DNA of 64,000 nt, from the NCBI GenBank assembly GCA_050084515.1, contig CM114271.1:8308001-8372000 (forward strand). The letters are read 5' to 3'. Below are positions 1-50,700 of this stretch, piece by piece. A model generated the notes under the pieces. It saw only the letters and a list, made by a program, of their open reading frames with translations, made no database searches and had not been told where the DNA came from. The DNA comes from Blasia pusilla (Eukaryota). The position numbers were made by a program, and so were the translations under genes. The first letter of the stretch is position 1. Each line of letters opens with the position of its first letter.

Positions 1-260
1 TTGACCATTTGATAGAGGTAGGAGATTCCATACTTTACGGTCTCCAATCACTGGTTGGACTGTCGCACCTATTATGTCCTCGGTACCGTCCACCCTAACA
101 TCCTTGGATACAAAGATGGTTCCAATTTGTAGAAGAAATCGAAGAGAGAGAAAATTTTCATCCACTGCTAGAAAGACTCAAGAGCTTGCGGTCGAACGAT
201 TTTTGATTGAGGAAGGGCCGCCAGATGACTGCCACAAGTGAGCTTCACATAATTATCCAT
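1..260 (-). pseudogene. 5' end of MULE transposase (copy 1), runs off the window
   Basis: The minus strand translates VSKDVRVDGTEDIIGATVQPVIGDRKVWNLLPLSNGQ versus VSKDVRVDDMEDVVGETIQPVIADCKVWNLLPLKNGQ in copy 2. ATG at 260 (MDNYVKL) matches ATG at 41613 (MENYVKL). A frameshift/stop lies between. Confidence 0.7.
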
Positions 261-509
261 TCCGAAAAATTTTGTACGGGAGGAGAGTGAGAGTGAGAAT
301 GAGAATTTTTAATTTATAGTGAATAGGAAATCAGATACTCGTGACAAAATTTTACTGACAAGATGAAGTTCGGTAGGTGAAAATGTCTGACACAATGGAT
401 TCAATTCCGTTGCAACCGATTCAATTCCGTTGCAACCGATTCAATTTTGTTGCAATCTGTTACAGGATTTGGGAAGCAAAGACGTGGGTTGCGAAGCACA
501 CTTCATTTC

Positions 510-1196
510 GTTGGAACCCGTCGGAGTCCTGGTTACTCAACTATTAACCCAAGCTAAGCGAAGCCTACAACCCGTCGGCTTCGGACGGGTTGCATGCTTG
601 TGCCTACCTTGAAACGCAAACATGATCAAAGCTGGAAACCCGTCGCTCTCCAAGGAGTTGCTCGGATACCGCGCCTTCTTGCCCGAAGATGGCGGAGGCT
701 TGCAACCCGTCAGCATCAGACGGGTTGCCCAATTATCTCATGGTGTAACACTTACATGAAGGAAGCGTGCAAAGCTTCTATTCTCGACGAGTTCTGCGGG
801 TGCCGCACCTTCTTGCCCAAAGACGGCGAGGCGTGCAACCCGTCGCCCTCCGACGGGTTGCGCAAGGGCCTCCCCTTGTTTCGCTTACATGAAGGAAGCG
901 TGCAACATGTCGGCCTCCAACGAGTTGCGCGGAAAGCCCAGGTTGTTAACCCTTGACGAGGGAAGCGTGCAACCCAACGGTCTCTGACGGGTTGCGCGGT
1001 TACGTCCCGTTCTTGTCCGAAGACGGCGAAGGCGCGCAACCTGTAGATCTCCGACGGGTTGCGCGGGTACCTCCCGTTCTTGTCCGAAGAGGGCGGAGGT
1101 GCTCAACCTGTCGGTCTTCGACGGGTTGCTCGTGCACCTCGCGTTATCGTCCCAGGACGGCGGAGGCGCTCAACCTGTCGGACTCCGACGGGTTGC
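510..1196. repeat. Tandem array (~66-67 bp period, ~11 units), each carrying the palindrome GCAACCCGTCG-N5-CGACGGGTTGC
   Basis: Units at ~567, 636, 702, 835, 902, 969, 1036, 1101 and 1170. The inter-palindrome segments are related to each other (ttcttgtccgaagacggcg...). Confidence 0.9.
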
Positions 1197-1268
1197 CATT
1201 TTTCACGTCCAGACTTCCGTAACGGCCGGCACGTCGCCGGCGGAAGAACGATGCGACCCAACGGTCAG

Positions 1269-1293
1269 CCCAACGGCTAGAAAAGTATAAATA
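1269..1293 (+). promoter_or_regulatory. Putative core promoter (CCCAACGGCT + TATA box) of the ParB-like/MTase-like gene
   Basis: cccaacggctagaaaagTATAAATA. The same arrangement, cccaacggctctgaaacTATATAA, is conserved at 42351-42374 in copy 2. Confidence 0.55.
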
Positions 1294-2274
1294 GGGGAGA
1301 AATCCTTATTTCCGGTTTCTCATTTTGCGATCTCCATTGCTCTCCCGCGCAGAGCTGATCAGATACCAAGGGGCGCTTCACACGGCGAGTCATTGCGAGA
1401 CGATACGAGCAAACGAGAGCAAGACGATTCGACCAAACGATCGCGAGACGATTTGAGCTACCCGTCAAGGCGACTCATCTCGACATCAGCAAGGCGAGTG
1501 ATGAAGCGATTCATCGTGGACATAGGTGGAGGAATTTCTGGGAAAAATGACGAGGAAAAAAGCTCAAGCAAACAAGTCTGGGAGCTTCACTCCCAAGTCT
1601 ATTAGGACTCCTGCGTCACCATCTCCAGGGCCTCGTTCGGAAAATGAGATAAGGCAGCAAGAAATCGAGGAGCGGGAAAGGGAAGCGGAGATGCACAACC
1701 AGGAGCTTCTTGCGAAACGTGTACAAGAGGCGCTCGATAAACAAAACGCATAGGCTGAGATGTCGCAGGCCTTGAAGAAAAGGTTCGCCGACGAAAAGCG
1801 AGAAAAGAAGCGTCTGGACGCGTTGGTGAGAAGAGCAGAATTGGCAAAAGTGAGGAGGGAAAAAGCAATAGCCATTGACGACAGCCCTGCCCGTCCAACT
1901 GAAAGTGTTGAGATGCGGGAAATGTCCCCGATGAAGTTCGGGGACACAATCAATATAGCGGAAATGGCCGAAGTTCAAATCATGGACGATGAGGTCATGA
2001 GGACCGCCGGCGTGGAGATGGTGGACATTGCCGAAGAAGCAGGAGAGCGGTCATCCTCGTCTCCAAGCCCAGCGGAAGAAATTGACCTCTATCGGATCGA
2101 CGAGTTTCCAGTGGACTTTCCAACTGCTGTCTTAGAGCAGTTGGCTGGTCAATAAACCGACCCAATCTTCGAGCAGGTAAGAGAGGATCTGGGTTTTTTA
2201 AATTATGTGAAGGCCCATCTTGCAATTCATTGGCAATTAAGTGTAGCTTACTGATCTTGTCCCGGTTGTGACAG

Positions 2275-2747
2275 GTGGTAAAGCATATGGCACTGATGGA
2301 GGGCCACAACGCCCCGAGAATTCCACTCTCCCGATTGCGGACAATGGAGTACGTCCGCGAAATTCAGTTTGACGAGGATATTGCGAAGCTCAAACCATTG
2401 GCAGCGACAGCATCCTACGTCGACAGCTTCCCTCCATTCTATGTTCAGCCTTACGATGAGCATGGAACCCAAGCGCTGGTTACGGAGGAAGACTTGGAAA
2501 AGCTTGACACATTCTGGAGGATGAGAGATCAGGAATTCAGAAGGCAAGTAGAGGGGACGGAATTCAGCTGGATGAGGAATCTGCATTTCTTCATCTGGGA
2601 TGGAAATCACAGGTTCATGGCGTGGACAAAGTTTGCAGAGGAGCGCCCAAACTCCTTGGAGGCACATTTTTGCGTGAAGGAAGTGGTCCTTCATCCATAC
2701 CCTCATCACATGGCGACGGTGGAGATGGCCATGCATGCCATGAACAC
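2275..2747 (+). CDS. Exon 2: ParB/Srx-like N-terminal domain (DGNHR motif)
   Basis: RIPLSRLRTMEYVREI...FFIWDGNHRFMAW matches the ParB/Srx GxxRxxA signature. Flanked by acag| and |gtaag splice sites. Confidence 0.7.
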
Positions 2748-2759
2748 GTAAGTTTCTTC

Positions 2760-3560
2760 TTGCTGCAAACCGTCGGACTCCGACAAGTGGTTTGAGTCGC
2801 CACTGTTTTTGGGTTGTTTTTGGCCAAACGCAACTTGTCGGACTCTGTCGAGTTGCTCGATTGATGAATGGGTTAGGATGTTTTTGGCCGAAAGCAGCTC
2901 GTCGGAGTCCGACGAGTTGTTCGACTGACCACAAGTTTAGTATGTTTTTGGCCCAAAGCAACTCGTCGGAGTCCGACGAGTTGCTCGACAGGCCGCATTC
3001 TTTGGATGTATTTTGAAGAAAGCAACTCGTTGGAGTCCGACGAGTTGCTTGACTCGCCGTATTTTTTGGATGTATTTCGAAGAAAGCAACTTGTCGGAGT
3101 CCGACGAGTTGCTCGGCTCGCCGCATTTTTTGGATGTTTTGTGAAGAAAGCAACTCGTCGGACTCCAACTGACCATAGGTTTAGTATGTTTTTGGCCCAA
3201 AGCAACTCGTCGGAGTCCGACGGGTTGCTTGACTCGAAGCTATTTTTGGAGTTTTTTTGATGTTTTTGGCTGAAAGCAACTCGTCGGAGTCTGACAAGTT
3301 GCATTCGGAAGTTGGAAGCTACATTTTTCGCGTCAAATTGCAGCTTTCATTGCAATTGCACAACCTGTCGGACTCCGACGGGTTGCTATGTTCACTTTTG
3401 ATACGGACTATCTGACAACTCGTCGGAGTCCGACGGGTTGAAACCATGCAATCACAAATCTGAATGCAATCCGTCGGACTCTGACAGGTTGCATAATTTA
3501 GCTCGTTGCTAGAATCCGACCTTGAGCTATGACGAAGTGTCGGAGTCCGACGGGTTGCAG
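2760..3560. repeat. Intron 2 palindrome array (~13 units, ~64 bp period)
   Basis: Repeated aaaGCAACTCGTCGGAGTCCGACGAGTTGC at e.g. 2958, 3022, 3086 and 3202. Confidence 0.9.
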
Positions 3561-3849
3561 GAACCCATGTACCTTACAAAATTTCTTATATTGAGTTTGG
3601 ATGTGCAGGATTGTATCGGAGGGGAATGTCACCCACCACTGGATCCAAGATTGCGATCGGGTGAAGAAAGTGCTTACAACGCACCCGACAGAGTACAAGG
3701 GGTTCTTGGGCGACGCCTTGGTAAATCAGATGCTGGAAAAGGATGCACAAATAAAAAAGAAGACTTGGGCAAATAAGTTTATTTCCCAAGATGCAACCGT
3801 CACAATCCTTTGCTTGTCGAAGATATAGGCCGCGAAGAAGAGCGCTGCA

Positions 3850-5067
3850 TTGGAGGTGGAGCGGAGGGAGAAAGTATTTGTGTCTGAGCGTGCAAAATTC
3901 ATCGAAGCTACACTATCTGCAGCCACGAAGTACACGGCAAGCAAGATGCAGCGCTACATCGCCATTCTCAACCCCGAACTTGGTCCGGAGTTTTACAAGG
4001 AGTTGAAGGCGATTATCAAGCGCCAGCGAAAAAGGGATGAAGATCCGCAAGGTCGGATTGGGGAGAAAGTGTCTCTCAATCGCGTGCATCGATTTGCATT
4101 GTCAGGAATAAGCGAGTTTAGGAGAATCCGACTGATGAAAATCAGTCTCGAGGGCACAGAGGCCCAGAAGAGAGCGGCACACCATCCTCCGGGTGTGTCT
4201 GATCCAGTGATCTCCCATTGGCTCCGCGAATGGTCGTTTTGGGACGCGTTGCGGCTTATCGAGAAGTCCATGCTGGACGGTCTCCAAGCGGAGCTCAAAA
4301 GAATAGAGCCCATTTTGGATGAAGCATACCTGGAAAGTGCTGTAGATTTCGAACTTTGGCTTGATGACATCTGGGACAAGCCCATCAAAAACCCAAGTTT
4401 CAAGACGATGTTCAAGGATTGCGTCCTCCCTCAGGCAGACCTTGACGAAGAAATCGAGGGGAACAAAAGGGATCTCGCAAAGAAGAAGCGAGATCTTCAG
4501 GAGAATGCGGCCCATTTAGTTCGACTAAGAGCTGCCCAACGGATGGTCTTCAGGTACCTCGTCTATTGTAAGAATGCACGTACCTGGGGAAAAATACCGG
4601 CAGCCTACAAATTTTGGGCTTCTTCGCCTGATGGAGAGACATTCTCCATGTACGACACGGAGATGGCTCAGCACATGTCCGATTGGGAGGTGGAGAATTT
4701 CCCGATTTGGTTGGACTTCAACGACCATGAGGACATTACCGAGAAATATTTACGCGTGCTTCATGATGCAGTGGCCGCAGGACGGGACCACATCCCCAAT
4801 TTTGTGCAGCCTGGAGACTTTTTTGAAGGAGATGCGGAAGAGCAAGCCCTCGAGACAGCGGAGTTGGCTTCCAAGGTCCACACAGCCAAAGACAAATCCA
4901 AAATGGGTCTCAAAGGCAAGGCGAGGGGAGCGAAGAATTTTGAGGACGAGTCTTCCCAAAGAGAGGCTGAAGATTCAAGGCCAGAGCCGGAATCGTCCGG
5001 GCGAGCGGGGAGAGAGGGTCGGACCAGGTCCTCCACGAAAAAACCCCACCAGAGTCTGAGGTCATAG
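3850..5067 (+). CDS. Central part of exon 3 of the ParB-like/MTase-like gene (405 aa open stretch, helical/charged, function unknown)
   Basis: In frame with 3610-3828 across a single TAG. It is the longest ORF in the window and has protein-like composition. Confidence 0.6.
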   Translation: MEVERREKVFVSERAKFIEATLSAATKYTASKMQRYIAILNPELGPEFYKELKAIIKRQRKRDEDPQGRIGEKVSLNRVHRFALSGISEFRRIRLMKISLEGTEAQKRAAHHPPGVSDPVISHWLREWSFWDALRLIEKSMLDGLQAELKRIEPILDEAYLESAVDFELWLDDIWDKPIKNPSFKTMFKDCVLPQADLDEEIEGNKRDLAKKKRDLQENAAHLVRLRAAQRMVFRYLVYCKNARTWGKIPAAYKFWASSPDGETFSMYDTEMAQHMSDWEVENFPIWLDFNDHEDITEKYLRVLHDAVAAGRDHIPNFVQPGDFFEGDAEEQALETAELASKVHTAKDKSKMGLKGKARGAKNFEDESSQREAEDSRPEPESSGRAGREGRTRSSTKKPHQSLRS

Positions 5068-5689
5068 AGACCTTGACAAGCCGACCGCAGACTCGGGAGA
5101 AGCGGAAGCGAGAGGCGCCAGGGTTGTCCTAAGGAGAATACAGTCCATAATCCTTGGGAAGACATAGAAAAACAACGACCCGGACAAGCGTCCTCCTTCA
5201 GTTCACGAATTTACTGGATGAGCTGAAAAGTTTCAGTTCTCAAGCGTCGACACCCGCCATTGATAAATTGACAACGTTGGGACGGAAGCTTCAACGAAAC
5301 GGGCACGCTCCCTGGACGGTCAATGGAGTGGTCAAAGAGGTGGCGGTGGATCTATTGATCGCTGATTTGCCCTCGGGGTTGCGATTGGGGACGAAAATCC
5401 GTCGGACGGGGTACCAGACTAGAATGTTCCCCTTTCTTATGACCAGATCACGCTCCTATTTTTTCTTTGCATACGCTTATCTGAGTGACAGGGGCTACTT
5501 CTTAGTTTTGACTGGAGGGAGCAAGGACGAGCTTTTCAACCTCCAGTGCATCAAGAGGTCGCTAAAGTGGAGGACGGTGCAAGCGTGGATCATCAAGAAC
5601 GAGTACCCACTATGATCTGCGACGAGTCAGATCTGGGTAAGGCTCTATTCCTGTCTCTAGATTGTATATCTCCGACGTTGTTTTTGTCT

Positions 5690-6003
5690 GTGAGCAACCC
5701 GTCGGAAGGCGACAGGTTGTTGGCTTAGAGCAGCCCATGCTTGGTTGAGAGCAACCCGTTGTTTTCCGACGGGTTGCATCTTTCCCAGAAACATAGGGAA
5801 AACGCATTACCACATGCAACCCGTTGGAACCCGACGGGTTGCAGTTGCTTATGGTTTTTCCCTGTGTTTCCGAAAAGCTGCAACCCGTCGGAAAGCAACG
5901 GGTTGCTCTCAACCAAGCATGGGATGCTCTAAGCCAGCAACATGTCGCCTTCCGACGGGTTGGTCATGGACAAAAACAACCCGTCGGACTCCGACAAGTT
6001 GCT
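5690..6003. repeat. Intron 3 palindrome array (~6 units)
   Basis: Units at ~5694, 5750, 5816, 5880, 5937 and 5977, with variable 5-nt centres. Confidence 0.85.
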
Positions 6004-6112
6004 CCAATGTTAGTATTTAAAAGAAGTTCTCTAGGGTCAAGCAAAGTTTTTTGGTGACCTGTTGCACATTATGCCAAGTTTCTGACATTGTTTCCAATGT
6101 GCTTCTTTACAG

Positions 6113-6625
6113 ATGGACCACTCCTATGTTTACTGCTTCGTTTGGCCCGAGCACAACTTCCAGGTGTTCAAGATCCAAGATCCTGTGGATCCATGCTCAG
6201 ATGGGTACAGCTTAGATAGTTTATACAATTCTCCCCCGAGAATTTACATGCAAGACGGTACCCCACTACTTGGAGGAAGGGAAAAATCGCCATCCCTGAT
6301 GCAAACGCTCATCGAGCTCTGCTCAAGGCCGGGTGACTTGGTGTTCGACTTAGTGGGCCTTTCAGGGGCGAGTATCAAAGGCGCCAGGCAGAGTGGCAGG
6401 AACATTCTCTACCTCGAGGGAAGGCAGGAACTATTTGACCTTTGCAAGGAGGCAAAGGGAGATTACGACATGCTCGTTGGGGCGTACAACTCTCCACCGA
6501 AGTCGAGAGCTCCGATTCCCAACCCACCATTGGTAGTGACACCATCGTCACTTCCAACGATTCCGAAAATCGGGAGGGCAAGGCCGGAAGTAATTTTGCA
6601 AGAGCTCTCGGACGATGACCAGTGA
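6113..6625 (+). CDS. Exon 4: SAM-binding half of beta-class DNA amino-methyltransferase-like domain
   Basis: EKSPSLMQTLIELCSRPGDLVFDLVGLSGASIKGARQSGRNILYLE parallels the N6_N4_Mtase pattern QKPxxLxxxLIxxxSxxGDxVLDPFxGSGTTxxAAxxxGRxxxxxE. Confidence 0.7.
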   Translation: MDHSYVYCFVWPEHNFQVFKIQDPVDPCSDGYSLDSLYNSPPRIYMQDGTPLLGGREKSPSLMQTLIELCSRPGDLVFDLVGLSGASIKGARQSGRNILYLEGRQELFDLCKEAKGDYDMLVGAYNSPPKSRAPIPNPPLVVTPSSLPTIPKIGRARPEVILQELSDDDQ

Positions 6626-6699
6626 GTTCAAAGAACTCAAGGACCCAGCTTGACTGCATCGTTTGTAGTAGGGAGTTATTTAATGATGAGGCAAAAGAT

Positions 6700-7810
6700 T
6701 TCATAGAATAGATCAAATGTACAATTCCGAGCTTCTTTTGCATGTAATAAAGGAGAAGATTTTCTCGAACGATGGTGGTGTTTCTAAAAGTTTTCTGAAT
6801 ATCTTTTAAGTCTTTTCGAATGTGATCGTCTATGTACTCCGCGGACTTCTATTTTGCAACCCGTCGGATTTGCACGGCTTGCAACTTTTCACTTTTTGAC
6901 CATTGCACCTTTTTAACCACTTCCAAGCAACCTGTCGGATTCCGACAGGTTGCCTGATCGGACTCTTTCCTTGTTGGTCCAACTTAAGAGGCAGTCTGGC
7001 GGGCTTCTTCACTTTGGCACCTTCCCCTAGTATCGTAAAAGAAGGCGTAGGCTTCTTTTCTTCTCTCAGATGTGTTGGATTCCTACTACCTGTGGGATTG
7101 CCATCATGGTATTACCAAGGACGGAGCACATATTGATACTGGATGGGTGTCACATTGCAGAGCGTACAAGATATACTGCCGAGGAAGGCGATGGGACTCA
7201 AATCAGGTTACATGGGACCGTTATGGTGTACCTAGGGGGGGGCCAAGGCTCTCGAATTTTCCAACATTTTCGATCCCCGTCTACAATCGGCCAGAGGAGC
7301 TACTTGTATCCCCGGACATTCCTTTTGTATAACAACCTAGGAGAGTTAGGAGTAAATTTGTAGATGACGAGGCTGAAGAAATCATAGACTAGGTCAAATG
7401 TACATTTCCGAGGTTCCTTCGGAGGTAATAAAGGACGAGATTTTTTCAACCGATAATGGTGTTGGAAAAAGTTTGCTGGAAATTGTTTTTGGACTTGTGG
7501 ATTGTGTTCTTTTAGGTACTCAATCCACAAGTCCAATTAGCTAATTTTGCAACCCGTATGATTCCGACGGGTTGCAACTTTAAGCTTTTTGCCCACTGCA
7601 ACTTTTTAACCATTTCCAGGCAAGTTGTCGGATTCCGACAAGTTGGCTGCTTGAGTGATCGGACTCTTTCCCTGTGAAACCAACTTCTAACGCATTGTGG
7701 CGGGCTTCTTAACTTTTGGCTCGATCCCCTACATTCGTCAAACCAATTGTAGGCTTCTTTTCTTGTCTAAGATGTGCAGGATTCCTACTACCTGTCGGAT
7801 TGCCATTTCG
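6700..7810. repeat. Diverged direct duplication (~6700-7105 vs ~7380-7810), each with two palindromes; further palindromes to ~8016
   Basis: The blocks gatcaaatgtaca.., tgatcggactctttcc, ggcgggcttctt and gattcctactacctgt are shared in the same order. Confidence 0.8.
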
Positions 7811-8590
7811 GATTCCCAACCCGCTGGATTTTCGTGGGTGCGGGGTGGAAGGGAATCACAGTGAGAAATCTTTCCTTTCTTATGGTGAGCTTGCTTGCAA
7901 GGGGTGCAAGCCATCTGATTCCAATGGGTTGCAAGAGTTGCAACCTGTAAAATTTCGATGGGTTGCAAGAGTTGGAGGCCCCCAAGAGTTGCAACCTGTA
8001 AAATTCCGACGGGTTGGGAGGATCTTAATGAAGTGACATCACTTCCTCTTTACTCCAGAAAACTAACAATCTTTTGGTTCAATTATCGTCTCATGTGTTC
8101 ACATTTCACAAAGTTGGTCTTGAGCAGACACCACTCATAACCAACAGAAAGTTGGTTATGAGGCAATTCAGGGAAGGCCATGATGCAGGCAACAATCCCT
8201 GCAAAAAGAGAGGTTGGCATCGTATTGATGCGCATCCGGGTGGTCTTCCAACAAAAATATCCATGGGCACTGCTTATTGTAGACCAAGACAGGCAATGTT
8301 AAGAATTTTAGGCTCACATGGAGAGTGATGGAAAATTGTTTGGAGTGGTCTTATGATGTCTATTTTTTTTTCGCGCCCTGGAAAAAGGAGGTTTCTTTAG
8401 GGCCAAATGTGGACCACTACCTACTCTCTTCTAAAGATTTCATGAATTTGAAAGCAAACAAAAATTTCAAATATGTCACAAAGTTTTGAAGAGAAGAGGC
8501 AGATTTGGCCCTTTTTTTTGAAGAGAGACTCTCCTCTCTTCCTCTCTTCCTCTCCTCTCTTACTCTCTCCAGTCAAAATACCAGCCCCCG

Positions 8591-10151
8591 CAATTGTATG
8601 TGGTAGTGCATGGCTATGAGTCGTTCATCATAGGCTTAGGATGTAAGTCAAGAGGACAGACAAGGAGTATTTGAGGTGAGAGCTCGTATGTGGATAAGCA
8701 CCTAGAACAGGACCTTGTGTTGGATTACACTCGGCCTCGCCCTAGCGTCGGCGAGACAGATGAAGTCTATCTTGGGGCTTGGGGTGATCTTACTTGTGGC
8801 TTCAGAAGTAAACTTAGTGACGCGCCTAAGTCGAATACGAGAGTGACCCAATAGAAGTACAAATTGTAGATCAGGTAAACAAGTGTGATGTTTAGAGGAA
8901 TGAGCCAGAAGAGTCTAAGGTTGCACACTTAGTTAGCTTATTTGATAGGTTAGTTCTTTGGAATGAGTCCAAGCTTATCAAAGAGGAGAGGGTAATAATT
9001 CTAAGTGGTGCAAAGCGACAACTGTAGACTTAGAGGAATTGCAGGTTAGCCACCAGAACGCAATTCAATGTCAAGGGGTAGGCTGCCCAAGAGACTTGAC
9101 ATAACACATGTTTGCGTTGATGAGGGCATCAACCTTTAAAGAGGGGTGAGTGTCGTGATCCTCATGACCAAATGAGTGCCAAAGCGGAACATCGGAACAT
9201 TAGCGGGCTCACGCTAAGATGGTTTGCGCGTTGGAGTAGTCTCGAAGAAGAGACAAGAGACAAGACGCAAGCGAGCCTTCGCGTTTCAGATGTTGTGGTC
9301 GCGACCGAGAAACCTGGACCAAACGCGGAATAAGACTTGAAAGGAGTCGAGTCTAGAAAGTGGGTTGCCAAAGGAAGAATCCGGATTTGGAACGCCACTA
9401 GCGTTTGAGAGTTTCCGACTGTATCTATAACCATAACTTTTAGCGCCGAGATGAGTTTGGATTAGACAAGGGTGCATTGGAAGGCTTATGGAAAGCTGAT
9501 TCAAACGCACTAAAGATCTCTACAAACGGATAAGCAGCGGCTGAGGAAAAAAACCAAGAAACGATTGTAATTAGAGTCGGGTTGAGGGCCACAATGAAGG
9601 GCCCGACCCTCCTTTTCCAAAGGGGGGTTATTGGAGAACCCAGAAGTACTAGTAAGGGGGAAGGTCTCCAAGAGTGCTTGGAACTCGAATCCCACTTTGG
9701 GTGCCACACGGCGGCTCAAGGGCGTGGAACGGATCGAGAGTTTGGGGTTGGGTTGGAAAACCTGAACCAAGTCTACGGAGGTGATTTTAGACATCCCTCT
9801 TGGATTTCACACCGCGACTCAATTTCTTGGGTCTCGGTTTGGAGCTCGCACCAGGTCCGTTGAACAGTTGGGATCGCTAGGCGCGCAAGTGCCATTTTAG
9901 GTTCCTGGACTAATCAGGAAGTCTGTTCCAAGTCTTGAAGGACTTGCCATGTTTTGGAAACTAGGAATTAAGGAAGGTTGAGCTTGATGAGACGCCGAGT
10001 TGAGAACTCGGTGGGTTGGAACGCTGGTTGGCCCGGACCCGACTAACAAGAGTGCGTGTTTGGGTGCAGATCGGCGATGAGATCGTGTCCTACTGAACAT
10101 ACGCTTTCGCAACACTAAAGATTGACGTTCAATGAGAGTAGGGGCACGACA
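8591..10151 (+). mobile_element. Long LTR (chromovirus family, 5'-truncated/solo)
   Basis: High similarity to 33031-34593. Ends ...gtaggggcacgaCA. The homologous LTR end at 40192 is followed by a PBS and gag. Confidence 0.8.
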
Positions 10152-25200: not shown

Positions 25201-26392
25201 ATTTTTTGTTGTTGTATATGTAATAATGTATTGATTAGTGGTAGGAGACATAACTATGGGCTTGATAGTGAAGGTTTGAATCTTGCCCAAGACATGGACA
25301 AATGAGGTCGGTGGATGGAGTGTTGTCAGACGCAGTTCATGGTTGGATGAATGGACAAAGTTGGTGGATGGACGGATGGGTCGATGGATGGAGTTGATGG
25401 ATGGATAGACACATGGAATGTCGATGGAGAAAGAGTTGATAAACTGATGGAGGATAGGACGTATGAACAAATGGAGTTGATGGAGTTATTGAAGGTGAGA
25501 GAGATCCGGATAGAGGGTACAACATATGGACGGAGATAATTGATGTAAGGATAAACATAATATTTTGTCATTTATTCTTATTTCTATGTCATTGAATCAT
25601 TTGCCATATCATCTATATGATGTAACAAGCATGAATATATGACTCAAATTTTTGTGCCATGACAATAAAGCATGCTAATCATCGCAATTATTTGAAAGAT
25701 ATGCAAGGTGTCACAAAAACGGACTTGTCCAAAAAATTATAGACATCAAGTTTGCATGTGGAAAAAGTCATTGTCCATGTCCTTGGACTTACGTCCATCT
25801 TATGGAAGGACTTGCCCCCACCATCCCCTTCTTTCTCATTCCCCCCACTTGCCTTTGTGTTCCATACTCTCCCGTTTTTTCTTCCCTCTACCTCCACTCC
25901 CTCCTCCCTTATTTCCCCACTCGCCCTTGCCCTACTTTCCATCATTAAGTTTGGGTCTCACCTCTTGCAGTCCATGTCCGTGGAGAGGAGCAATATGAGG
26001 AGAGGAAGAGAGGAGAGAGGAAACTACCTTCAACCCAAAGAGATATTTTTTTCTTGAAGAGAGTTTCCTGTGATTTGAAGAGAGTTTCCGTTGGGTTGAA
26101 GGAAGGAAATTTTTTTGTAATTTTTTTTGCACTTTTGTTCTCAATGCTTAGGCACTCCCACAGATTTTTTTCCTCTTGCACATTTTAGCAACCCATCTGA
26201 ATCCGACGGGTTGCAATTTGCATAAAATTTCAAAAAATATAAAAATCATTGGAATCATAAATGTGGAACAAATCACTTTTTCCATCCAAGGTCTGGAAAA
26301 ACTCTATCATTTGCCCTGGGATGAATAGAGTTCAAGCTTAAAGTGAAGGTTCTAGCAAATGAAAGTACAATCTAAGACATCATTTTGCATCC

Positions 26393-29300
26393 TCAAAGTA
26401 GTTTGTTTAAAATACTTCGCACTTCTTTGAGGGACATAATTGGTTGGTGGAATCCTACTCCTACCTCCGACTCTCTGAAAACTACAAGCAACACGTAGTA
26501 CATGTGCTTACAAGGGAAATACCTTTTCCCACTTGTCTCTCTTTGGACAAAGTCTTCATAGGAACATGTGGGAAAGCAACAGATGTGCACCACATACACC
26601 CCTGTGACACTTGAATTTACAATGTTGTTCTTGATCCAAAACATCCTTCCTATTCCATTACCACTCTCGACATCTTTTGTGGCGATGATTTCCATGTTTG
26701 CCTCCGGAACTGATGCGATTCGCTTTGCTCTCTCCACCGTTGGCCTACACATTCTATTTCTCTTCACCCCATTTCTAGACTCAAACAGAAATAGTGGATT
26801 GAGATCATCCACCTTCTCTCGGTACATGTTGACATCAATCTTGGGTTGAATACGAAATGCGAAGGTCTTTGTAATGCAAACATGATCCGAACTTCCTCCG
26901 TGAACGAGTATGAAACCGACACTTGTAAGATTGTCCACTTCATCCTAAGTGCAATTCATACTTGCGGCAATGGGCCAAATCGTGGGGGTATTTCCTGTAG
27001 CTCCAATGGCAGCCGGATAAGACTTACGGAAAGCGCAATATTTATTTGGGCAGAAGAAGTACTCCAATTGATCCCCGGTCCTTGTGAAATGATCAAAGGT
27101 CTTGAGTCCCCAAAATCTAGGCAGTGGTTGTCCAGTCCTTGTACAGTTCTTATTTAGGAAAGTGCCGCATGCTCTCCTAATGCCATCATATCATGCCCTG
27201 CAAGTGGCTCCACATACAGGTTTGCTCCGAGATATATGCCACCTTTTGAGGTTGCAATCCACCTCAATGACCGGAATCCCATGCTATTGAACTACCCTAG
27301 AGACCGGATGTTGCGAACTTCCAACAACGGAGGGCTTATGAAATAAAACATTCACTGATTTTGGAGAAGTTACTGCATCTCATATTTGGGAGCAATCCGG
27401 GGTCTCCCAATACCTGGGCGGCATAATTTCTTTATCCAAATCAATCACCCGGTTCGTTCCTCAATGTTGAAGTCAAGATATTTATCTGGTCTCCACGAAT
27501 CTCGCTTGGACTGCTCTACCACCATCTATATGGGACGTCTTGAAACACGCCCATGAATATCCCCACCAATGTGGACATCTTGCTCGAGGGGAGTTCTTGC
27601 TACGCACCGATTGAAGGCTTCCACATAGAGTTTCTAATCAACAAATCTTACAGCCGCCTTGACATAGACCTCGTAAATTGAAGGCCCCTTTCCTTTTGTT
27701 ATGCCTTTTGTGAGGAAGATATGGGATGCTGCAGACTGTAGCGTTGCTCTTGCATGGTCTTGTTGGTATGCCTCAACGAGTGGAATTCTTTGGCATGCTG
27801 GTGACGACCTCTAGGAGGAATGAACACTTTCTGCTCCACTTGTCTTGGGGCAGAGGCCATTTTCATGAATGTTCTATCCCTGCAACGACGACAATGTGAG
27901 AAGGGAACAAAAATAGCTCTATGAGCAAAGAAAAAAGCAACCTGTCGAAACCAGACGGATCGCAAGTCGAAGGCATCCCATGAATGACTCTGTGACCCAT
28001 CGGTTTTCGACTTGTTGCAACACCCAGGAACCACCTAGTGCAACCCGTCGGATTCAGATGGGTTGCAAGTAACTTTGGTCACTCCGCGTTGGAAGATCCA
28101 AGTGCAAGTCATCAGAATCCGACGGGTTGCACATGGATTTTCCAGCCTCGGACTTGAAACGGGTTGCAAGTCGGAGACATCCCTGGAATGTCCCAGTAAC
28201 CTTTTACTTCAACCTAGCACCCAAGAACCTGCTACTGCAACCCGTTGGAATCGGACGGATTGTGAGAAGCAGGCCGGTCCGGTCTCGAAAATCCTTGTGC
28301 AACGTGTCGGATTCCGTTGGCTTGCAAGAAGTGTCCACACACAAAGCTTTCAAACTATTGGAATTTGACGGGTTCCAATTAACTTGCGTTGATGCAACAT
28401 ATCTGGATGCGAGGACTTGTAGACATCAACAACCTGTTTGAATGCGAGGAGTCGCATACAGACGCAACTAGTCAGAATCTGACATGTTGCAGACGCACGC
28501 AACTTGTCGGAATCCGACGGGTTGTAGACCGAGTTAACTTGTAGCCTTGCGGCTTGCGACCCATCTGGGTCAAACTATTTGCAGGCCTTGTATACATGCA
28601 ACTTGCAACCCGTCGGGATTCGACAGGTTGCACACTCATGCAACCAGTCAGGTTTTGACGGGTTGCACAAACATTCCTCGTGCATGATGTCGCACTCTGA
28701 CGGGTGTGACACTTAAGCAACCAATTGAGTTCCAATGGGTAACACAAACATTCTTGATGCAATGTGTCGATTTCCGACGGGTTGCACACCTAGACAACCC
28801 GTCGCATCCGACGGGTTGCTTGGTTTCTGCGGTTTGAAATCCCTATAGTGCCCACGCTTCTCAACTTAAGCTGCAACTTTTCAAAAACATCTCAGCATGA
28901 GCTCAACAGGACGAAATACTGAACTCACCTACTGCATGAAGTTTCCCCATTGTCTCATTTGTACAGTCCACCAATTGAGCCAAGAGCACAACTCTTTGTA
29001 CTTCCCCTCAATCGCATGCTTCCTCCACCACCCATGAAGTTCTTCTTGGCACTCCATGGTCAGTTTCAAGGTTTTGCTGTCCTTGCAACGTTCAAGTAGA
29101 GTGACATGCTATGTCCTCTTATTCTTCTTGATGCAAGATTTGGTGTATCGGGTCACAGATTGTTGCCAATGGAAAGCATGCGACCTTTCCCTCTCTGGTT
29201 GACCCTCTCCACCCGAGAACACTCCCCTGATAGCAATCCACCCAGGTTGTGCATTGTCTGCCATAAATCCATAAATTTCCGGAGATGGCCTTTTGTTTTT

Positions 29301-30790
29301 GTTCGCCACCTCCAATAAGAGTAACCAACACATCTTCAAACTGCCAACGTCTTTTTCTTTTACCTCACAGATAAATATAGTTTCTAGTCCCTTCTCCACA
29401 TGGTCCTAAACGTGAGCACCCATAGTCAACCATCCATTCAACACTCTGTAGAAAATATCAAAGCTTACCCAATTGCCATAGAGATCTTCCCCTTCCCTCA
29501 TTCAATCTATAAGATCGAGGCCACTCGACGGCCCTGTAGCTGGTATTTTGAAGACATAAGCCTTGGATCCTTCACCTCCTTGGCCCATGAACTTCCATCT
29601 TTGAATAAATGGAAATCTGGAGTTGGCCTTGATTCTGGAAATGGCATCCATTTCGGCCGTCTTTCCATCAATTACCGTATTTTACGCAACAAATTCCGGA
29701 AGCATTCAGAATTGGCGAGAAATGCGGGATTTTCCGAGAGTTCTTTCTCCTTAACAGTTGTGATCTCGCCTTGCCCAGAGATTCCAAGCAATTGTTCAAA
29801 AATTTGTGATGTTGTTGTTAACTTGATCACTCCGAGCTTTGATCCCACAGAGTTTCTATATACCTCGGCCACTTTCTTTGCCACGTCCTCGTTGATGTGT
29901 CTCTGAATTGCACCGATAACACGATGAGTGTGGGAGCCAACATGAATTTCCAGCCTGGTGTACTCGAACGTAGAGTTGAAGTCGTGCACAATGAAAAATA
30001 TATATGGAGGACACGCTCCAACGCAGAAAGGGGATGCCTGACAATGAGGACATCGATGGCCTCCTAGCGGTATGGTCGCACCGACCTCATATGGATTTTC
30101 TGCATTCTTTGGGAGGAATTGCGACATATTGACTTGCCCATTGCGCTCTAGATACGAGCAGCTTGGACTTCTACACTCCATGGCTCCAACGCATTGGCGG
30201 CTAGAAACAATCCAAGGACCATATGGAATTGAAGCACTAGTCCGTTGAAGCCTGCACCATCGATGACAATCAGACTTTCTGTCCATACCCTTCAATCGTC
30301 CTCCATCTTTCTTTTGAGCAAGACCAATAAGTGGAGGTAACTCAAGAATGCAATTACCATCATACGTGGACGATATCTTGTCCAAAAGAATATGCTTGAA
30401 TATTTTAAAGGGCAGAGACGCCAACAAAATATTTCCTGATACTCACAAGAGGAACGAATAGGCAGACACAGGGCCTGGTTGGTGTCCGTCAGATCCACTA
30501 AGGTTGACAACATCTGGAATGTCTTCAAGAAAGACAATATTTTTATGAACACGTGAAGTTGGAGTCGATGCCGGATCTACTGAGCTGGGAGTGGCAAACA
30601 TAGAGCTCGATGCACTAGGAAATTCGAGATTGTCTACTTGGGAAACAGAGGAATTCAGAGGTAAGCCATAAACTCTATATTGACCATTTTTTAGGGGTAG
30701 GAGATTCCATACTTTACAGTCTGCTATCACTGGCTGGATTGTCTCACCTACAACGTCCTCCATATCGTCCACCCTAACATCCTTGGAAAC
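26393..30790 (-). pseudogene. MULE transposase: GCM/WRKY-like Zn domain + DDE core + C-terminal SWIM finger; intron ~27880-28928
   Basis: RQCVGAMEC...C..C...HVGSHTH (29672-30427). WVSFDIFYRVLNGWLTMGAHV (first D, ~29410-29475). FMADNAQPGWIAIRGVF...HAFHWQQS (second D and C/HxxH, 29109-29399). TSGAESVH (E, ~27820-27845). CCFPTCS..FPCKHMYYV SWIM finger (26393-26938). Multiple stops and frameshifts. Confidence 0.85.
27935..28820. repeat. Palindrome array inside the transposase intron (~12 units)
   Basis: gcaacccgtcggattcagatgggttgc (28040), gcaacttgtcggaatccgacgggttgt (28499), gcaacccgtcgggattcgacaggttgc (28606) and others. Confidence 0.85.
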
Positions 30791-41580: not shown

Positions 41581-42676
41581 TAGGCTCTCATGTAATTTCA
41601 CATAATTTTCCATGTGGATATGAAAACAAAGATAATTCCACAGGAAAGGAAGGGAATGAGAATGAGAATAAGAATAAGAGTGAGATAGTTGAATTTAGAG
41701 TGAACATTGTCCGTTTATTTTCTGACATGAAGTTGGTAGTTAGGTTGAACCGTCACTAGTTGACAAGACCAAGCGACCAAGAATATTTCTATGTTAGATG
41801 AATGGGTAAGCAACCAATCAAAGTTTGAGGAGTTGATGTGGAGTCTCCTGTAAGAGTTGGGATGAAATCAAGTCAATTTGGAAATGCAACCCGTCGGACT
41901 CCGATGGGTTGCAAGGGGTCATGTTGGTCAACTAGTCAGATTCCGACGGGTTGCTTTATTGCAAATGTAAGTGATTCTGCGGTAAGAAGAGGGTCCCCGA
42001 TGGAATTTGTTCTACCCATCGGATTTTGACATGTTGTAGTTGGTCCAAAGTTGGGGGTCTTTAGGACGTACGTGAAAGAAGAGTGGGAAGGGGTTCATTC
42101 AACCTTTCGAAATCCGACTGGTTGCATTGACCTCTTGAAAAGGCGTATGGTGTACAGCCTCCCGGGGTAAGTGCAACCTGTCGGATTCCTTCAGGTTGGG
42201 CTAGGAGAATGCTCTAAACTTTGTTCGAGAGTAACCCATCGGAATTCGTTGGGGTTGCACAATGCACGCGCTGTAGCGGTCCACCGTTGTTGTCGCCCCA
42301 ACGGACAATGGTCGATGTCACCCCAATAGTCTTCAGTCGCCGTCGCTTGGCCCAACGGCTCTGAAACTATATAAGGACCAACTTTGACGTCTTTCATTTT
42401 TTCATTTTCCACGATTAAGCAAGAGCTCCTCTCCCTCCGAGGACTTGGTTGGTTGGGAGTGAATCAGAACGACATTCCCCCCTATAGTTTTGGTAGTTGG
42501 TGCGCATTCCCTTAAGCTTGACCGCAAAATGGTTGGTGATCCTTCAGTTGGAAGGTGACGACAGTTTGGGTGGATATCCTTTGAGCTGCCACGGTCAGGC
42601 TGAGCTTGACTCCACGATTTCATGACAGCTCTTCTCCCCTCGAGGACTTAGTTGGTTGGCAGTGCATCAACACGAT

Positions 42677-46239: not shown

Positions 46240-47754
46240 AGGGTACTATTGGGAAATGGACAAAGAAGGGAAGCGAGACCTTCGAGTGAAGTGGAAGAGA
46301 CGACTCCATTACAAATAGGTTCGCAACAAATAGGATGAGGAAAGAAGAATTGGCCAGAGAAGTTTGAGGTTATTGCACCACCATTGAGTTTCCTCCATTT
46401 TAACATTGTCTGTACATATGGGACGTGTTGGGCTTTCCACTTCTAGGGCCAAAGCCTTCTCCTTCTAGAATTTGGAGCCACATCCTTCTCCTTCAATAAT
46501 TCTTGCAACCTCAAGAGATGGCATATTTCTCGAAGCAACCCCAAACATGGATCCACTTGCATGGAAAGATCGGATGAAATAAGGATTGCATGTCGGGCTT
46601 TCCTGAATAAGAACCGTTCAAATACTCCGCGACCTTTGCCAAGCTTTTGAGGGCTGAAAACCTTTGATCGTTTTACAAGGACAGGGGATCAATTGAAGTT
46701 CTTCTTCTGCCCAAATTAAACGTGTGCTTTCCGAAAATCATACCGAGCTACCATTGGAGCTCTTAGGAATACCCCCATGATTTGGCCATTGTTGCAAGAA
46801 CCAATTTTACTCAGGAGGAAGTGGACAATCTTACAAGTGCAGGGTTCAAAGTGGTAGACAAAGGGAGTTTGGAACATGTTCGCTTTACACAGACATTTGT
46901 ATTTCGTATCCAACCTAAAACTGATATCAACCTATATCCGAAGAAGGTGGATGATCTAAACAGAATGTGTAGGTCAACAATGGAGAGAGCAAAGTGAATC
47001 GCATCAGTTTGGGAGGCCAACATGGAAATCATTGCCACAAAAGGTGTTCACATTGGGAATGGAATAGGAAGGATGTATTGGGTAAGGAACAATACTGTGA
47101 ATTCAAGTGTTCCTAGGGTGTATGTTGTACACATCTGTTTCCTACGTGTTTCTGGGATGACTTTGTCCAAAGAGAGACAAGTGGGAAAAGGTAGCTCCCT
47201 TGTAAGCACGTGCAGTATGTTTTGCTTGTAGCTTTAAGAGAGTCGGAGCTAGGAGTAGGAATCTATCAACCAATTAATTTGGGCCCTTAAAGAAGTGTGA
47301 AGTATCCTAAACAAGCCACTCTGAGGATGCAACATCAGGTCTGATAGTAGTTTGGAATTGCCAAACTATTAAATGCAATCTAGAACTTTCATCAATGTGC
47401 TTAAATTAAAAAAATTTCAGACCTTGTATGGAAATGTGATTTTTTCCACATCTGTGATCCAATGATTTTTTCAATTTTATAACTATGTGTTGAGAAATGA
47501 TTGGATGGAGGAAAGTTTCATCTATGTTGCAACCCGTCGGATTCAGATAGGTTGCCATAGTGGGGAGGAGGAAACAAAGTTTTTGGGAGTGACTAAGAAA
47601 AGAGAACATAATTTTAAGATTAAAAAAAATGTTTCTCCCTTTCTTCAACTTATAGGAAGCTCTCTTCAACCTATAGGAAACTCTCTTAGAAAAAAGGATC
47701 TCTTTGGGTTGACAATAGTTTTCTCTCTCCTCTCTCTCTCTCCTCCTCTCCTCT
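46240..47754 (+). mobile_element. Mutator-like transposon copy 3: transposase 3' end with SWIM finger and terminus, inverted relative to copy 2
   Basis: FTQEEVDNLTSAGF...FVFRIQPK and GIGRMYWVRNNTVNSSV match 26393-26938. Palindrome at 47528. 47660-47754 is the reverse complement of 25985-26080. Confidence 0.8.
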
Positions 47755-47759
47755 AACCA

Positions 47760-50700
47760 CTCCTTAGTGAGATGCGCCTTGCAACCTCAATGCTTCATCA
47801 AGCTCTACATACAAGTACTGTTGCACGCGCACGCTTGCCTACAAAACAACAACCAACCCAATCCTGATCCCTCCAAAGAGATCCAACACTTGAATGCCCT
47901 CCTCAAGGATATGCCACACAATGGGTATGGATCCAAGAGCAACATTGTAGTATTCCCGGCTACTTCGGGTTCCTTTGACCCATCATGCTCTAGCGCAAAT
48001 GCCTTACTCCAATCCATCTTCACGTGCTCATCAGCCAAGCGTCGAAGCTCTTCAATCAAGCCCCACAAAGGCACCTCTCTTCCACAGAATGATGATGTCA
48101 TCACAATACTTCTCTCCATAGGGATATCAATCATGGGTGTGTCCTCCGAAAGGACATGACCCTCAATCAAATCGTCAGGCCATATGATGGCGCTATTGAA
48201 TGCAACCAAAGAAACCATATCTCATGGCCGTCGCTCAATCACTCCACATGTTAATCAAATGGGTAACAAGCTAAGTATCCTATCACCTAACTGCCATCTT
48301 CATCTATAAGATGTTGACTCCTCCTAGTAATACATGAAAAACCACATTGGGTACAACACTACTCCTCCAACCAATACGTCAAAGGAATCGACATCATTCA
48401 CTATTGCCTTAGCTCGCACCACGGACTCATCTGAAGGATGTCTTGGTTGAATCCTCACCACAACCTCATGTGGGTGATAAATTATGTCGTGCTCGCTCCA
48501 CCCAAGGATGTTTGTATCCTAAATGGGCAGCGCTCCACATCAGCCCTTGTGAGGCCCAACCCTATAAATGCCTCTTTCCCTTAATATTAGGGGTTGCATT
48601 CCTGGATCTAACAAGACGCCTTGTGGATAAAATACTCTACTTCTTGGACTCACCAAATGTAAGACCTCTCCCCAATTATCTAGAAAAACAACACCTAGAT
48701 AAACCATGGCATGCTCTATTGCGGGTCTACTAATGGGCACCTACGTCATCCTAACATCCATGAATGTGAGGAGGATGGCCCAAGCATAAGCTTCAAGGGC
48801 AGGTCCACCACCTCCTCTGCAACCACCTCTGAACGTAAGGCAGTGATACCATCTCCACGCTCATATAGCATAGCGGCCAACCAGAAAAACCTTGGGGCGG
48901 GGGGGGGGGAATACCTCTAAACATTGTAACATTAGAAGGTGAAAACCATGTTTTTGGGGTGCGGTGCATAGCATGTGCCGCCCCCAACAACATACTCAAC
49001 ATAGGCCCTCTTTGAGCATCAACAATAGAAGTCATCGCACTTGCTTCTCCCATTTCCCGTTGTCCCTCCACACCAACAACATCCACTCTCCGAGAACTTT
49101 GATAAGGATCCATCAATGAGGTCCTAATTGCCTCATACAACGTAAAAGAATAAGGAAGCCTAGTCATTTTTCTAGCTTCCCTTCTTTGTGGATCCAACTC
49201 TACGACTCCTCTAGGCGTAACAACAACGGCTGCCTCCATCTGTGGAGCCTTTCACATCCAACCAAGATCATCCATATCTCTTGCTATGCCATATGATGTT
49301 GATGACACTGATTTGGCATTGGGTAACCTCAATGCCATTGAGGAAATATGTTGCTACAATTGCTCTATTTGAGCAGCTTCATGCCCCAAGTCTTCCTTGA
49401 ATCGTTTAGGTGCGGACCTCTACCTCCTCCATAGGAAAATCCACCACTCCCATGGGAAAATCCAACTCCATGTCCCCCCTATGGAACCACCTAGCACACA
49501 ACGTCTAGGCCCACCAAGACTGCCAACTTGCTCTAGTTGGTGCCCTCTCTTGTCCTTGGTCTAGACATAAGTCAAGACGTAAGCTAAAGCAACAAGAACA
49601 TGTATGACCATACCACTTATAATGATCACACTGGTATACTCTTGGTACACGCCCATCTCCTCCTCTAGGCAAGGGCACGTGTCCACTACCTTGACGGTTG
49701 CAATCTTGCTGCCACGTGCCCAAAATCTTGCTGACCCACATATGATGGCATGGGTTTTTGTGGCACATGCTCACAATAACCTTCTTGAGCTCGAGATGCC
49801 CTCCTCTCTTGAAATTCATATTGCTGCACTCTTGCTGTAATCAATTATGATTGATCTCGCACATAATTCATGGCAGATACACTCTCCTTGGCCCTGTTGT
49901 GCTAAATAAACTCTGCCATCTCACAAACATTTGACCATGTAGGTGAGGTGTGGATCAGAATTATTGCATCCCTCACATGTTTTCGTAGGTCTTGTTCCAA
50001 CATCGCATACCATGTGTGAAGGACGCGGGCCTTTGTCACCTCTTGAGTGACACTAATAATATGATGCAAATGAGTAAATTCCTCCCGCAAACTCTCCCGT
50101 GTATGCCTATGGAAGTCATGGATATTCCACAACTTCTCGATCCGTACGCCTTGGTATTTCCTCTATAAATCTGGAAAGAACTCAACCATGGGTTGAACCT
50201 AGGACCAACCCAACTAGACTATGCAACCGCCCCACTCTAACTCACCACTTCCTAGCTCTCACTGGTGGAAGAGGAAGTAGCATGCCCTAGCTCCTCCTCC
50301 TCATGTGGAAATGGCTCAATCATTGACATATAATGCAGATCGTAGAAGAGTCTCCAGGCCTCAATCTTGGGTGCGTACCTTTGGGAAAACTCATGGTAAT
50401 TGTTCATGAGTACCCCCTCTAGGTGCTAAAATATCCCATTCCATAATGTTAAAGGGTTGAAATTCTAGAGTTTGTGGCCCTCTGCGAGTCACACCAACTC
50501 CTAAACTCCGCAAGGAAGTCGCGCAATTCTATAGTACTTACAACTCCCAAAAACCTACGCGATCCTCTACCCTAGTCATCCATCTCGTATGTCCAAATGA
50601 TAGGACTACTCAAGGTGTGTGGGAAGGCACTAAAAAACTCTCTACGCCCTCTCACTCCTTTGAGGATGGCATAGAAGAAGGTCGAGATGGTCCCTCACGT
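47760..50700 (-). mobile_element. Highly degenerate gypsy gag-protease region
   Basis: HRHTRESLREEFTHL..WYAMLEQDLRKHVRD gag-like segment (49902-50132). Similar in layout to 34600-36300. Confidence 0.5.

Follow-up and report, generated by a model that had tools for sequence, protein, structure and literature searches.

The 64,000-nucleotide stretch of Blasia pusilla DNA analysed here (assembly GCA_050084515.1, contig CM114271.1, positions 8,308,001 to 8,372,000 of the forward strand; hereafter the window) begins inside a Mutator-like element (MULE) of about 12.8 kb. The non-coding parts of this element and of its family carry a 27-bp palindrome in many copies, and sequence comparison supports the conclusion that the palindrome is under selection as a dimeric protein-binding site. 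The support comes from a deep consensus that is unchanged, a fixed gap between the arms, retention of the site in miniature derivatives, its specificity to the family and the presence of a ParB/KorB-like accessory protein. From a modelled fold and by analogy, we lean slightly towards the palindrome being a parS-like loading site for the element's own ParB-like protein, used in the manner of the VANDAL/VANC arrays of Arabidopsis. The initial annotation had proposed selection for either a dimeric protein-binding site or a hairpin; the first proposal stands, on evidence other than that originally offered, and the second is not supported, no excess of arm symmetry beyond shared ancestry having been found.

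The palindrome has the consensus GCAACCCGTCGGA-N-TCCGACGGGTTGC. A consensus scan of window positions 1-8100 found 35 copies with up to 8 mismatches and 39 with up to 10, against a mean of 0.005 in shuffled sequence, in agreement with the roughly 35-40 copies first reported. The 35 copies span 567-8017, and two of them have perfect arms. They are distributed over the promoter (nine, 567-1196), introns 2 (13, 2765-3558) and 3 (six, 5694-6002) of the accessory gene, and the 3′ region (seven, 6856-8017). The copies singled out by the initial annotation at 2958-2984 and 6927-6953, as well as the tandem periods of 67 and 64 bp, were as it described them. One match at 4226 has nine mismatches, which is chance level. 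Elsewhere in the window there are 22 further copies with up to 8 mismatches (26188, 27937-28819, 41810-42257 and 47529), each within another piece of this MULE family, so that of the confinement originally claimed, the restriction to non-coding parts of the element stands and the restriction to 510-8016 does not. Genome-wide (390 Mb, 26 contigs), the exact consensus occurs 522 times and a reversed control pattern not once. In 31 copies of the main subfamily, none of 902 sites fell within coding anchors totalling about 148 kb, which bears out the absence from exons noted earlier; 863 lay in the promoter, intron 2, intron 3, the 3′ region, a transposase intron or the left subterminal region, and 39 in nested or rearranged pieces. 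The spacer length is also kept, as had been claimed, with a gap of 7 bp between half-sites in 934 of 1,032 pairs. The exact motif was absent from the viral, metagenome and prokaryote collections searched. Its centre is GANTC, which the available part of one source gives as the target of CcrM (PMC3708114); this resemblance may be due to chance. Half-site-like words (GTTG/CAAC) also occur within 20-21-bp tandem repeats at 398-455, 26054-26101 and 47642-47687, close to the promoter and the left ends.

To describe the contexts of exact sites, we used 36 distinct loci of the 522, made up of the 24 first listed on one contig (C1) and the 15 first listed of 98 sites with an A/T centre, with 3 repeats. 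All but one (35 of 36) belonged to the MULE family, its divergent subfamilies or its miniature derivatives, and the remaining locus is a displaced intron-2-like array among host exons. The unrelated MULE family that we compared has no site in 25 loci (82 kb), nor has the non-element DNA of the window (48 kb). The displaced array (L044 / L082 9500-10000, L083 1-3200) holds 10 sites, is 70-84% like intron 2 of a divergent subfamily and adjoins a Helitron-like fragment; the exons around it presumably belong to a UBX-domain gene. The unrelated MULE family has long non-coding tandem repeats too, as well as a different palindrome of 21 bp, which 24 of 25 loci (L132-L156) carry once, at a constant position close to the transposase coding region. 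We rejected this palindrome as a counterpart, since it is single-copy per element and unrelated.

The miniature elements are 340-690 bp long and share both termini with the autonomous element, whose interior their A/T-rich interior does not resemble. All 13 that were inspected hold one to four palindromes, and 8 of the 13 have at least 8 matching target-duplication bases. A first look gave 1,431 candidates for such derivatives (examples are L041 905-1232, L034 725-1416 and L049-L059). The smallest consists of the two termini and one perfect palindrome.

Conservation over long times was assessed in divergent subfamilies. Subfamilies whose proteins are 50-76% identical have their arrays in the same compartments, and synonymous divergence to five divergent subfamilies ranges from 0.7 to saturated. 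In nine divergent arrays, 160 sites keep the consensus at 70-98% per position. The spacers of these arrays, compared with those of the main subfamily, gave values of 0.34-0.44, as against 0.34-0.38 for shuffled spacers and 0.89-0.91 for controls. Although CG and CHG positions mutate several-fold faster than others, the CpG-rich consensus is unchanged. The spacing of sites, taken over 191 spacer classes, has a best period of 9.9 bp (R=0.21, p=0.001-0.006 against jitter), with peaks near 54, 64, 75, 83, 96 and 104 bp.

The initial annotation had based its case on symmetric covariation of the arms, which we reject. In the window, 22 of 118 arm differences are symmetric, forming 11 pairs where 7.9 are expected (p=0.12), and 78 of the 118 are C>T/G>A changes. 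Such changes hit the symmetric positions of a palindrome in equal measure. Pooling 862 units gave 199 symmetric pairs against 108 expected, but when the units were stratified within 41 unit types only pair 6:22 persisted. Among the 300 linked site pairs of the intron-2 units it comes 44th, behind many pairs that join two flank positions. Counted by type, the figures are 6 against 2.5 (p=0.024), and 4 against 2.1 (p=0.13) after related types were collapsed. Among 149 imperfect sites of divergent arrays, 35 symmetric pairs face 35.0 expected, and many unit types are fixed for asymmetric arms. Tandem amplification of ancestral units thus accounts for the arm symmetry observed. Judged from these sequences, the apparent covariation is shared ancestry, and each of the two arm variants pointed out originally is one ancestral event that was copied. 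A fixed gap without compensatory change indicates that sequence, not structure, is kept.

The accessory gene, which had been called ParB-like, encodes a protein with a predicted ParB fold, a helical region and an N6/N4-methylase-like domain. That call holds on the Atlas neighbours of exon 2, which are of ParB_N type, on a DGNHR motif that is intact in 27 of 37 matches, and on the model of a homologue from Riccia. Relatives of the protein are unnamed proteins of Riccia and Adiantum. The model of the Riccia protein P0012 was built on a 52-row alignment and has a mean predicted local distance difference test score (pLDDT) of 73, with most of residues 161-550 at 70-97. Its top three matches in a wide search are ParB-fold proteins. 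In structural alignments it reached Z 9.4 with KorB (204/209 residues, root-mean-square deviation (rmsd) 5.0), Z 9.2 with ParB (rmsd 2.3 over 99 residues) and Z 8.8 with Noc (210/221, rmsd 5.6). Whole-chain alignments with KorB, Noc and ParB span the helix-turn-helix (HTH) region (188-210 residues) at rmsd 5-5.6. A word-based homologue search with exon 2 returned nothing, and a full-alignment hidden Markov model (HMM) found nothing meaningful among PDB sequences. No viral loci for the protein were found, and in Pfam it matched only N6_N4_Mtase and no VANC-type family. One of the Atlas neighbour clusters of exon 2 (2275-2748) carries DUF3723 in 31% of its members; DUF3723 is named in the accessible parts of papers on fungal Starships, and by sequence this could be a further case of a eukaryotic transposon with a ParB-like accessory gene.

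Similarity of the C-terminal part to methylases was seen with PF01555 (E=5.6e-4, exon 4) and with PHROG DNA methyltransferases (E=2.5e-5). The motif order IV - target region - X/I/II was found together with PF01555 similarity, all of it below the Pfam cut-off (best E=1.1e-5). The catalytic (D/N/S)PP(Y/F) was present in none of 36 motif-IV matches in the genome and in none of the aligned homologues; motif IV reads D-[LMFIV]-P-x in the family copies and homologues examined. Without DPPY-type residues, the domain does not qualify as a member of this enzyme class. The ratio of non-synonymous to synonymous substitution (dN/dS) is 0.10 for the ParB part, 0.11-0.14 for the helical region and 0.09-0.17 for the methylase-like part where measurable; on this sequence measure the accessory gene is under purifying selection, its methylase-like part included.

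We infer that a protein dimer recognises the palindrome in double-stranded form, and that the site is kept by selection and multiplied through local tandem duplication wherever coding allows. Its likeliest reader would be the accessory protein, with a putative nucleoside triphosphate (NTP)-binding ParB fold followed by a helical DNA-binding domain and a methylase-like tail. Acting both in cis and in trans, dimers would load at the parS-like sites, whether these lie in an autonomous copy or in a miniature derivative, and may spread along the element as an NTP-gated clamp. Cognate elements would thereby stay open, transcribed or transposition-competent, a service that VANC renders to VANDAL elements.

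Two groups of known systems come close. In the VANDAL/VANC anti-silencing system of Arabidopsis, as far as the available text of the sources goes, a family-specific motif is piled up through tandem repeats within non-coding stretches (PMC5735166; see also PMC10398659). The Blasia family resembles it in joining a Mutator-like element with an accessory gene, and in having a family-specific tandem motif in introns, intergenic and terminal non-coding regions, with coding parts free of it. In those same portions, VANC motifs are 9 bp long, asymmetric, in the same orientation and fast-changing between families, whereas the Blasia palindrome has 27 bp and is constant across subfamilies. The Blasia accessory protein combines a predicted ParB fold with a methylase-like domain, and the loss of DNA methylation that VANC causes on binding its motif would here be hypothetical. 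To our knowledge, VANC is not ParB-like. By analogy, the Blasia family would work like VANDAL/VANC without being a member.

The second group comprises ParB/parS, Noc/NBS, KorB/OB and BisD/bisS. Going by the homologue model, the Blasia protein appears to share with these clamps, as described in the accessible parts of two papers, a ParB fold with a GxxR-type motif, followed by a helical domain that may be placed, loosely, over their DNA-binding domain (PMC12704722; PMC12409273). Palindromic sites on the same mobile element, here candidate cognate sites, are a further likeness, and BisD of ICEclc activates genes of its own element, according to the part of the paper available (PMC12409273). Unlike these systems, the Blasia element is a eukaryotic nuclear transposon with spliceosomal introns and without ParA, its site is longer and present in dozens per element, and its protein has a long helical insertion, a C-terminal methylase-like domain and only putative nucleotide binding. 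Phage ParB-N6N4-methyltransferase fusions likewise join a ParB fold to a PF01555-type domain with beta-class motif order, in the excerpt available (PMC12704722). As in eukaryotic N6A/N4C methylases, a bacterial-type methylase is found in an early-diverging plant lineage, but the known enzymes have DPPY, NPPY or SPPY at motif IV and not D-[LMFIV]-P-x. In the available portions of the same sources, a chlorophyte ParB-Dam fusion has only the ParB HTH, and DN4MT1 of Marchantia, with TSPPY, figures as a pair of host genes, both unlike the Blasia protein (PMC4738411; bioRxiv 10.1101/2021.02.12.428880).

A more far-reaching version is tentative and, in our estimate, somewhat improbable as a whole. 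The family would have taken over a bacterial or phage ParB-methylase fusion together with parS-like sites, and an NTP-gated nuclear clamp would recognise, spread on and mark or shield its own copies, possibly with the methylase-like domain acting at GANTC. This would serve anti-silencing or transposition licensing, independent of VANC and common to liverwort and fern elements.

Several observations weigh against a selected loading site. An exact site was the criterion for choosing the divergent loci and a 7-mismatch limit that for their sites, and the miniature elements were found with a query that contains the site, so both samples are biased. The periodicity of about 10 bp is weak, and the spacer classes share ancestry and are not fully independent. 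In the main subfamily, the arms diverge only about 25-35% less than the spacers, with no difference in one region. No clear methylation protection was seen near sites in dead copies, where CG transitions amount to 0.045 in arms, 0.061 beside arms and 0.057 in exons. The fold is taken from a Riccia homologue whose identity is 32% for exon 2 and 22% for exon 3; the ParB DNA-binding domain alone matches its model with Z 5.1 and rmsd 7.0, the superposition is loose (rmsd 5-7), and Foldseek returned no match at E<=0.001. A single-sequence model of exon 2 was unusable (pLDDT 43.5). The transposase and the accessory gene always occur together here, so that co-occurrence cannot separate the two as readers. 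Finally, 27 bp exceeds the 13-16 bp of parS, NBS and OB sites.

The transposase is indeed the main competitor for the role of reader. Its N-terminal Cys/His domain could bind the site for synapsis or for activation of its own copies, as at the subterminal repeats of other DNA transposons, an explanation that we regard as unlikely. Miniature elements keep the site, and a half-site about 90 bp and a full site about 200 bp inside the left end are constant, as this explanation would have it. It is also consistent with reports, in the parts of the sources available, that the AtMu1 transposase binds and activates autonomous and non-autonomous copies via shared motifs (10.64898/2026.08.24.746577) and that MULE transposases carry WRKY-GCM1 DNA-binding domains (PMC1702500). 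However, most sites lie deep in introns and in the promoter, none of 7 autonomous right ends has even a half-site in its last ~510 bp, the inverted match of the termini has another sequence, rich in GA, and AtMu1 binding lay at terminal inverted repeats (TIRs), according to the same part of that report (10.64898/2026.08.24.746577).

A neutral satellite would be an ancestral palindrome that spread by slippage, was homogenised by gene conversion and was tolerated only outside exons. It would account for the absence from exons, which is expected anyway, for arrays made of tandem units, for covariation as ancestry and for post-insertion decay in arms near background, and the other MULE family shows that non-coding tandem repeats also occur elsewhere. 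Conversion and slippage, however, would homogenise whole units, and only the 27 bp are common to 41 unit types and 9 divergent arrays, whose spacers are unrelated. The CpG-rich consensus is unchanged at synonymous divergence (dS) above 1, the gap is fixed, and the site reappears in the new A/T-rich context of miniature elements. We therefore strongly disfavour neutrality and give it little chance. That the element exploits a factor of the host, for transcription or chromatin, which the site recruits seems less probable again. Arrays do lie in introns and, at 90-720 bp, upstream of a TATA-like box, and low-level family transcripts exist, but host promoters should then hold such sites, and the only one of the 36 exact-site loci outside the family and its derivatives is a displaced intron piece. 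Near-invariant palindromes of 27 bp are, moreover, unusual for plant factors. A hairpin or cruciform acting as RNA signal, small-RNA source or recombination hot spot is the least credible explanation, for while the folding energy of perfect copies is -14 kcal/mol (z -7.7 and -9.5) and intron 3 forms a larger fold-back, there is no compensatory change beyond ancestry, only 2 of the 35 copies at 567-8017 have perfect arms, many unit types are fixed for asymmetric arms, it is primary sequence and not pairing that is conserved, and Rfam gave no match.

The window element, of which the right two thirds or so lie in the window (1..8589), was delimited by its collinearity with 10 other copies, drawn from the best exon 2 matches and collinear with the window and with 4.2 kb to its left, by sharp ends (GAGG...CCCCC) and by target site duplications (TSDs). 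Its left end lies ~4.2 kb upstream of the window (G000:C1:~8303781). It was inserted into a long terminal repeat (LTR), of which an uninterrupted counterpart is found at ~33031-33043. Target duplications of 9-10 bp with at most one mismatch were present in 6 of 6 copies that have both ends; here, the 10 bp at 8590..8599 (+) are identical to those that abut the left end. The right terminus (8504..8589) is TC-rich and matches the left end in inverted orientation over only about 40 bp, in an imperfect, GA-rich match; with no long TIRs, the element is of the non-TIR type. Like other MULEs, it has a MULE-type catalytic region, a SWIM finger, a 9-10-bp TSD, G...C ends and non-autonomous derivatives. 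Unlike typical ones, it has this ~40-bp imperfect terminal match, a transposase too divergent for PF10551 and a second gene of bacterial/phage type.

Besides its two genes, only one short open reading frame (ORF), in the 3′ part, was found in the element, and a cognate ParA ATPase was not among them. The genes diverge from the promoter array, the transposase leftwards and the accessory gene rightwards. The 5′ end of the transposase gene (1..280, -) continues beyond the window and was placed by tblastn of its N-terminus (278-1). Its catalytic part scores 0.91-0.95 against MULE clusters in the Atlas, and the 10 best named Atlas matches are all in the MULE clan (top 0.95). The SWIM finger has E=0.005; no PF10551 match was found by HMM, the sequence being too divergent, and the third catalytic residue was not located. 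The earlier MULE assignment is confirmed by the Atlas clusters, the SWIM finger and the TSD. The label 'GCM-like' for the N-terminus rests on a visible Cys/His pattern, with no Pfam or PDB match for a WRKY-GCM1 domain.

The promoter array of nine palindromes in 67-bp units (567..1196) lies between the genes, with two more degenerate palindromes near 514 and 768, and is followed by a TATA-like box (1286..1293, +) whose function is presumed from its sequence. The accessory gene (+) has four exons, which stops and frameshifts disrupt in the window copy. By predicted boundaries, exon 1 (1547..2176) encodes a low-complexity N-terminus and is frameshifted here; intron 1 (2177-2274) holds no palindrome. 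Exon 2 (2275..2747) encodes the predicted ParB/Srx-fold domain with DGNHR, a GxxR-type motif. Intron 2 (2748..3608) holds its 13 palindromes in 64-bp units and then at 51-84 bp, according to the scan and spliced reads. Exon 3 (3609..5636) encodes the helical region, which resembles the ParB DNA-binding domain in the homologue model, a linker and the N-terminal half of the methylase-like domain with DLPS at motif IV; stops and frameshifts interrupt it in the window, and it is open for 660 codons in copy L013. Intron 3 (5637..6112), placed by the scan, spliced reads and one contig, contains a fold-back of about 300 bp (5677-5980) with 107-bp arms that are 93% complementary, centred on the site at 5816. 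Exon 4 (6113..6625) encodes the C-terminal half of the methylase-like domain (motif X-I-II region) by similarity to PF01555 and PHROG, and ends with the stop at 6623-6625.

In the 3′ region (6856..8017), palindromes start at 6856, 6927, 7549, 7620, 7906, 7940 and 7991, the first four being two pairs produced by a ~700-bp duplication. This tandem duplication (6666-7104 and 7347-7806) is found in the main subfamily and doubled one site pair; segment 6680-7112 is missing from other copies. The final ~570 bp of the element hold no palindrome. An ORF of about 90 codons (7121-7392, +), ending in FVDDEAEEIID, stands just after the accessory TGA and is conserved across subfamilies (L123, L125, L086). 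It is in frame with the accessory gene across its single stop in 3 of 6 translated copies, and Riccia homologues carry a similar tail; readthrough or an extra exon is possible.

RNA reads derive from family members that are 82-99% alike, with only 3 of 1,719 at 99% or more, and family transcripts occur at a low level. Intron 2 is spliced at GT..AG (joint 2747-3609; 7 reads, 3 runs), with unspliced reads also present, and splicing of intron 3 is seen in a few reads and one contig. A fourth intron, suggested by an RNA joint at 6634-7115 (48 reads), was rejected, as several genomic copies are without that segment. In element copies, CHG mutates as fast as CG (~0.05-0.06, against 0.013 for CHH), which implies from sequence that the family is heavily CHG-methylated.

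Elsewhere in the window, a second, truncated copy (26000..30790, -) comprises a left end, a subterminal site at 26188 and the transposase gene, with a palindrome array (27937-28819) in a predicted transposase intron. A promoter-type piece of a diverged subfamily (41640..42420) holds the palindromes at 41810-42257. A diverged transposase 3′ end (50-63% identity) lies together with the subterminal site at 47529 and a left terminus (46459..47765, +). A host gene exon with a MIF4G_like_2 domain (E=1e-27) lies at 62026-62580 (-), and the remainder consists largely of LTR retroelements, nested and broken.

No description of this element or motif was found in the literature, and supplements, subscription journals and repeat libraries outside our scope could hold one. 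In the literature examined, self-recognition by transposon accessory proteins is known from flowering plants (VANC, TnpA), and palindrome loading by ParB from bacteria and their mobile elements. In the Blasia family, a candidate protein is available together with a candidate site defined to 27 bp, and the 340-690-bp derivatives are minimal substrates provided by nature. On a first look, exon 2 has 2,898 candidates and the transposase 3,018, which are not copy numbers, and it can thus be tested directly by what route the family reached such very high abundance (~2,900-3,000 candidates) under CG/CHG methylation. Should the clamp reading be true, a ParB-parS-type switch would be at work on eukaryotic chromatin, and a group of liverwort and fern proteins without a name would be accounted for.

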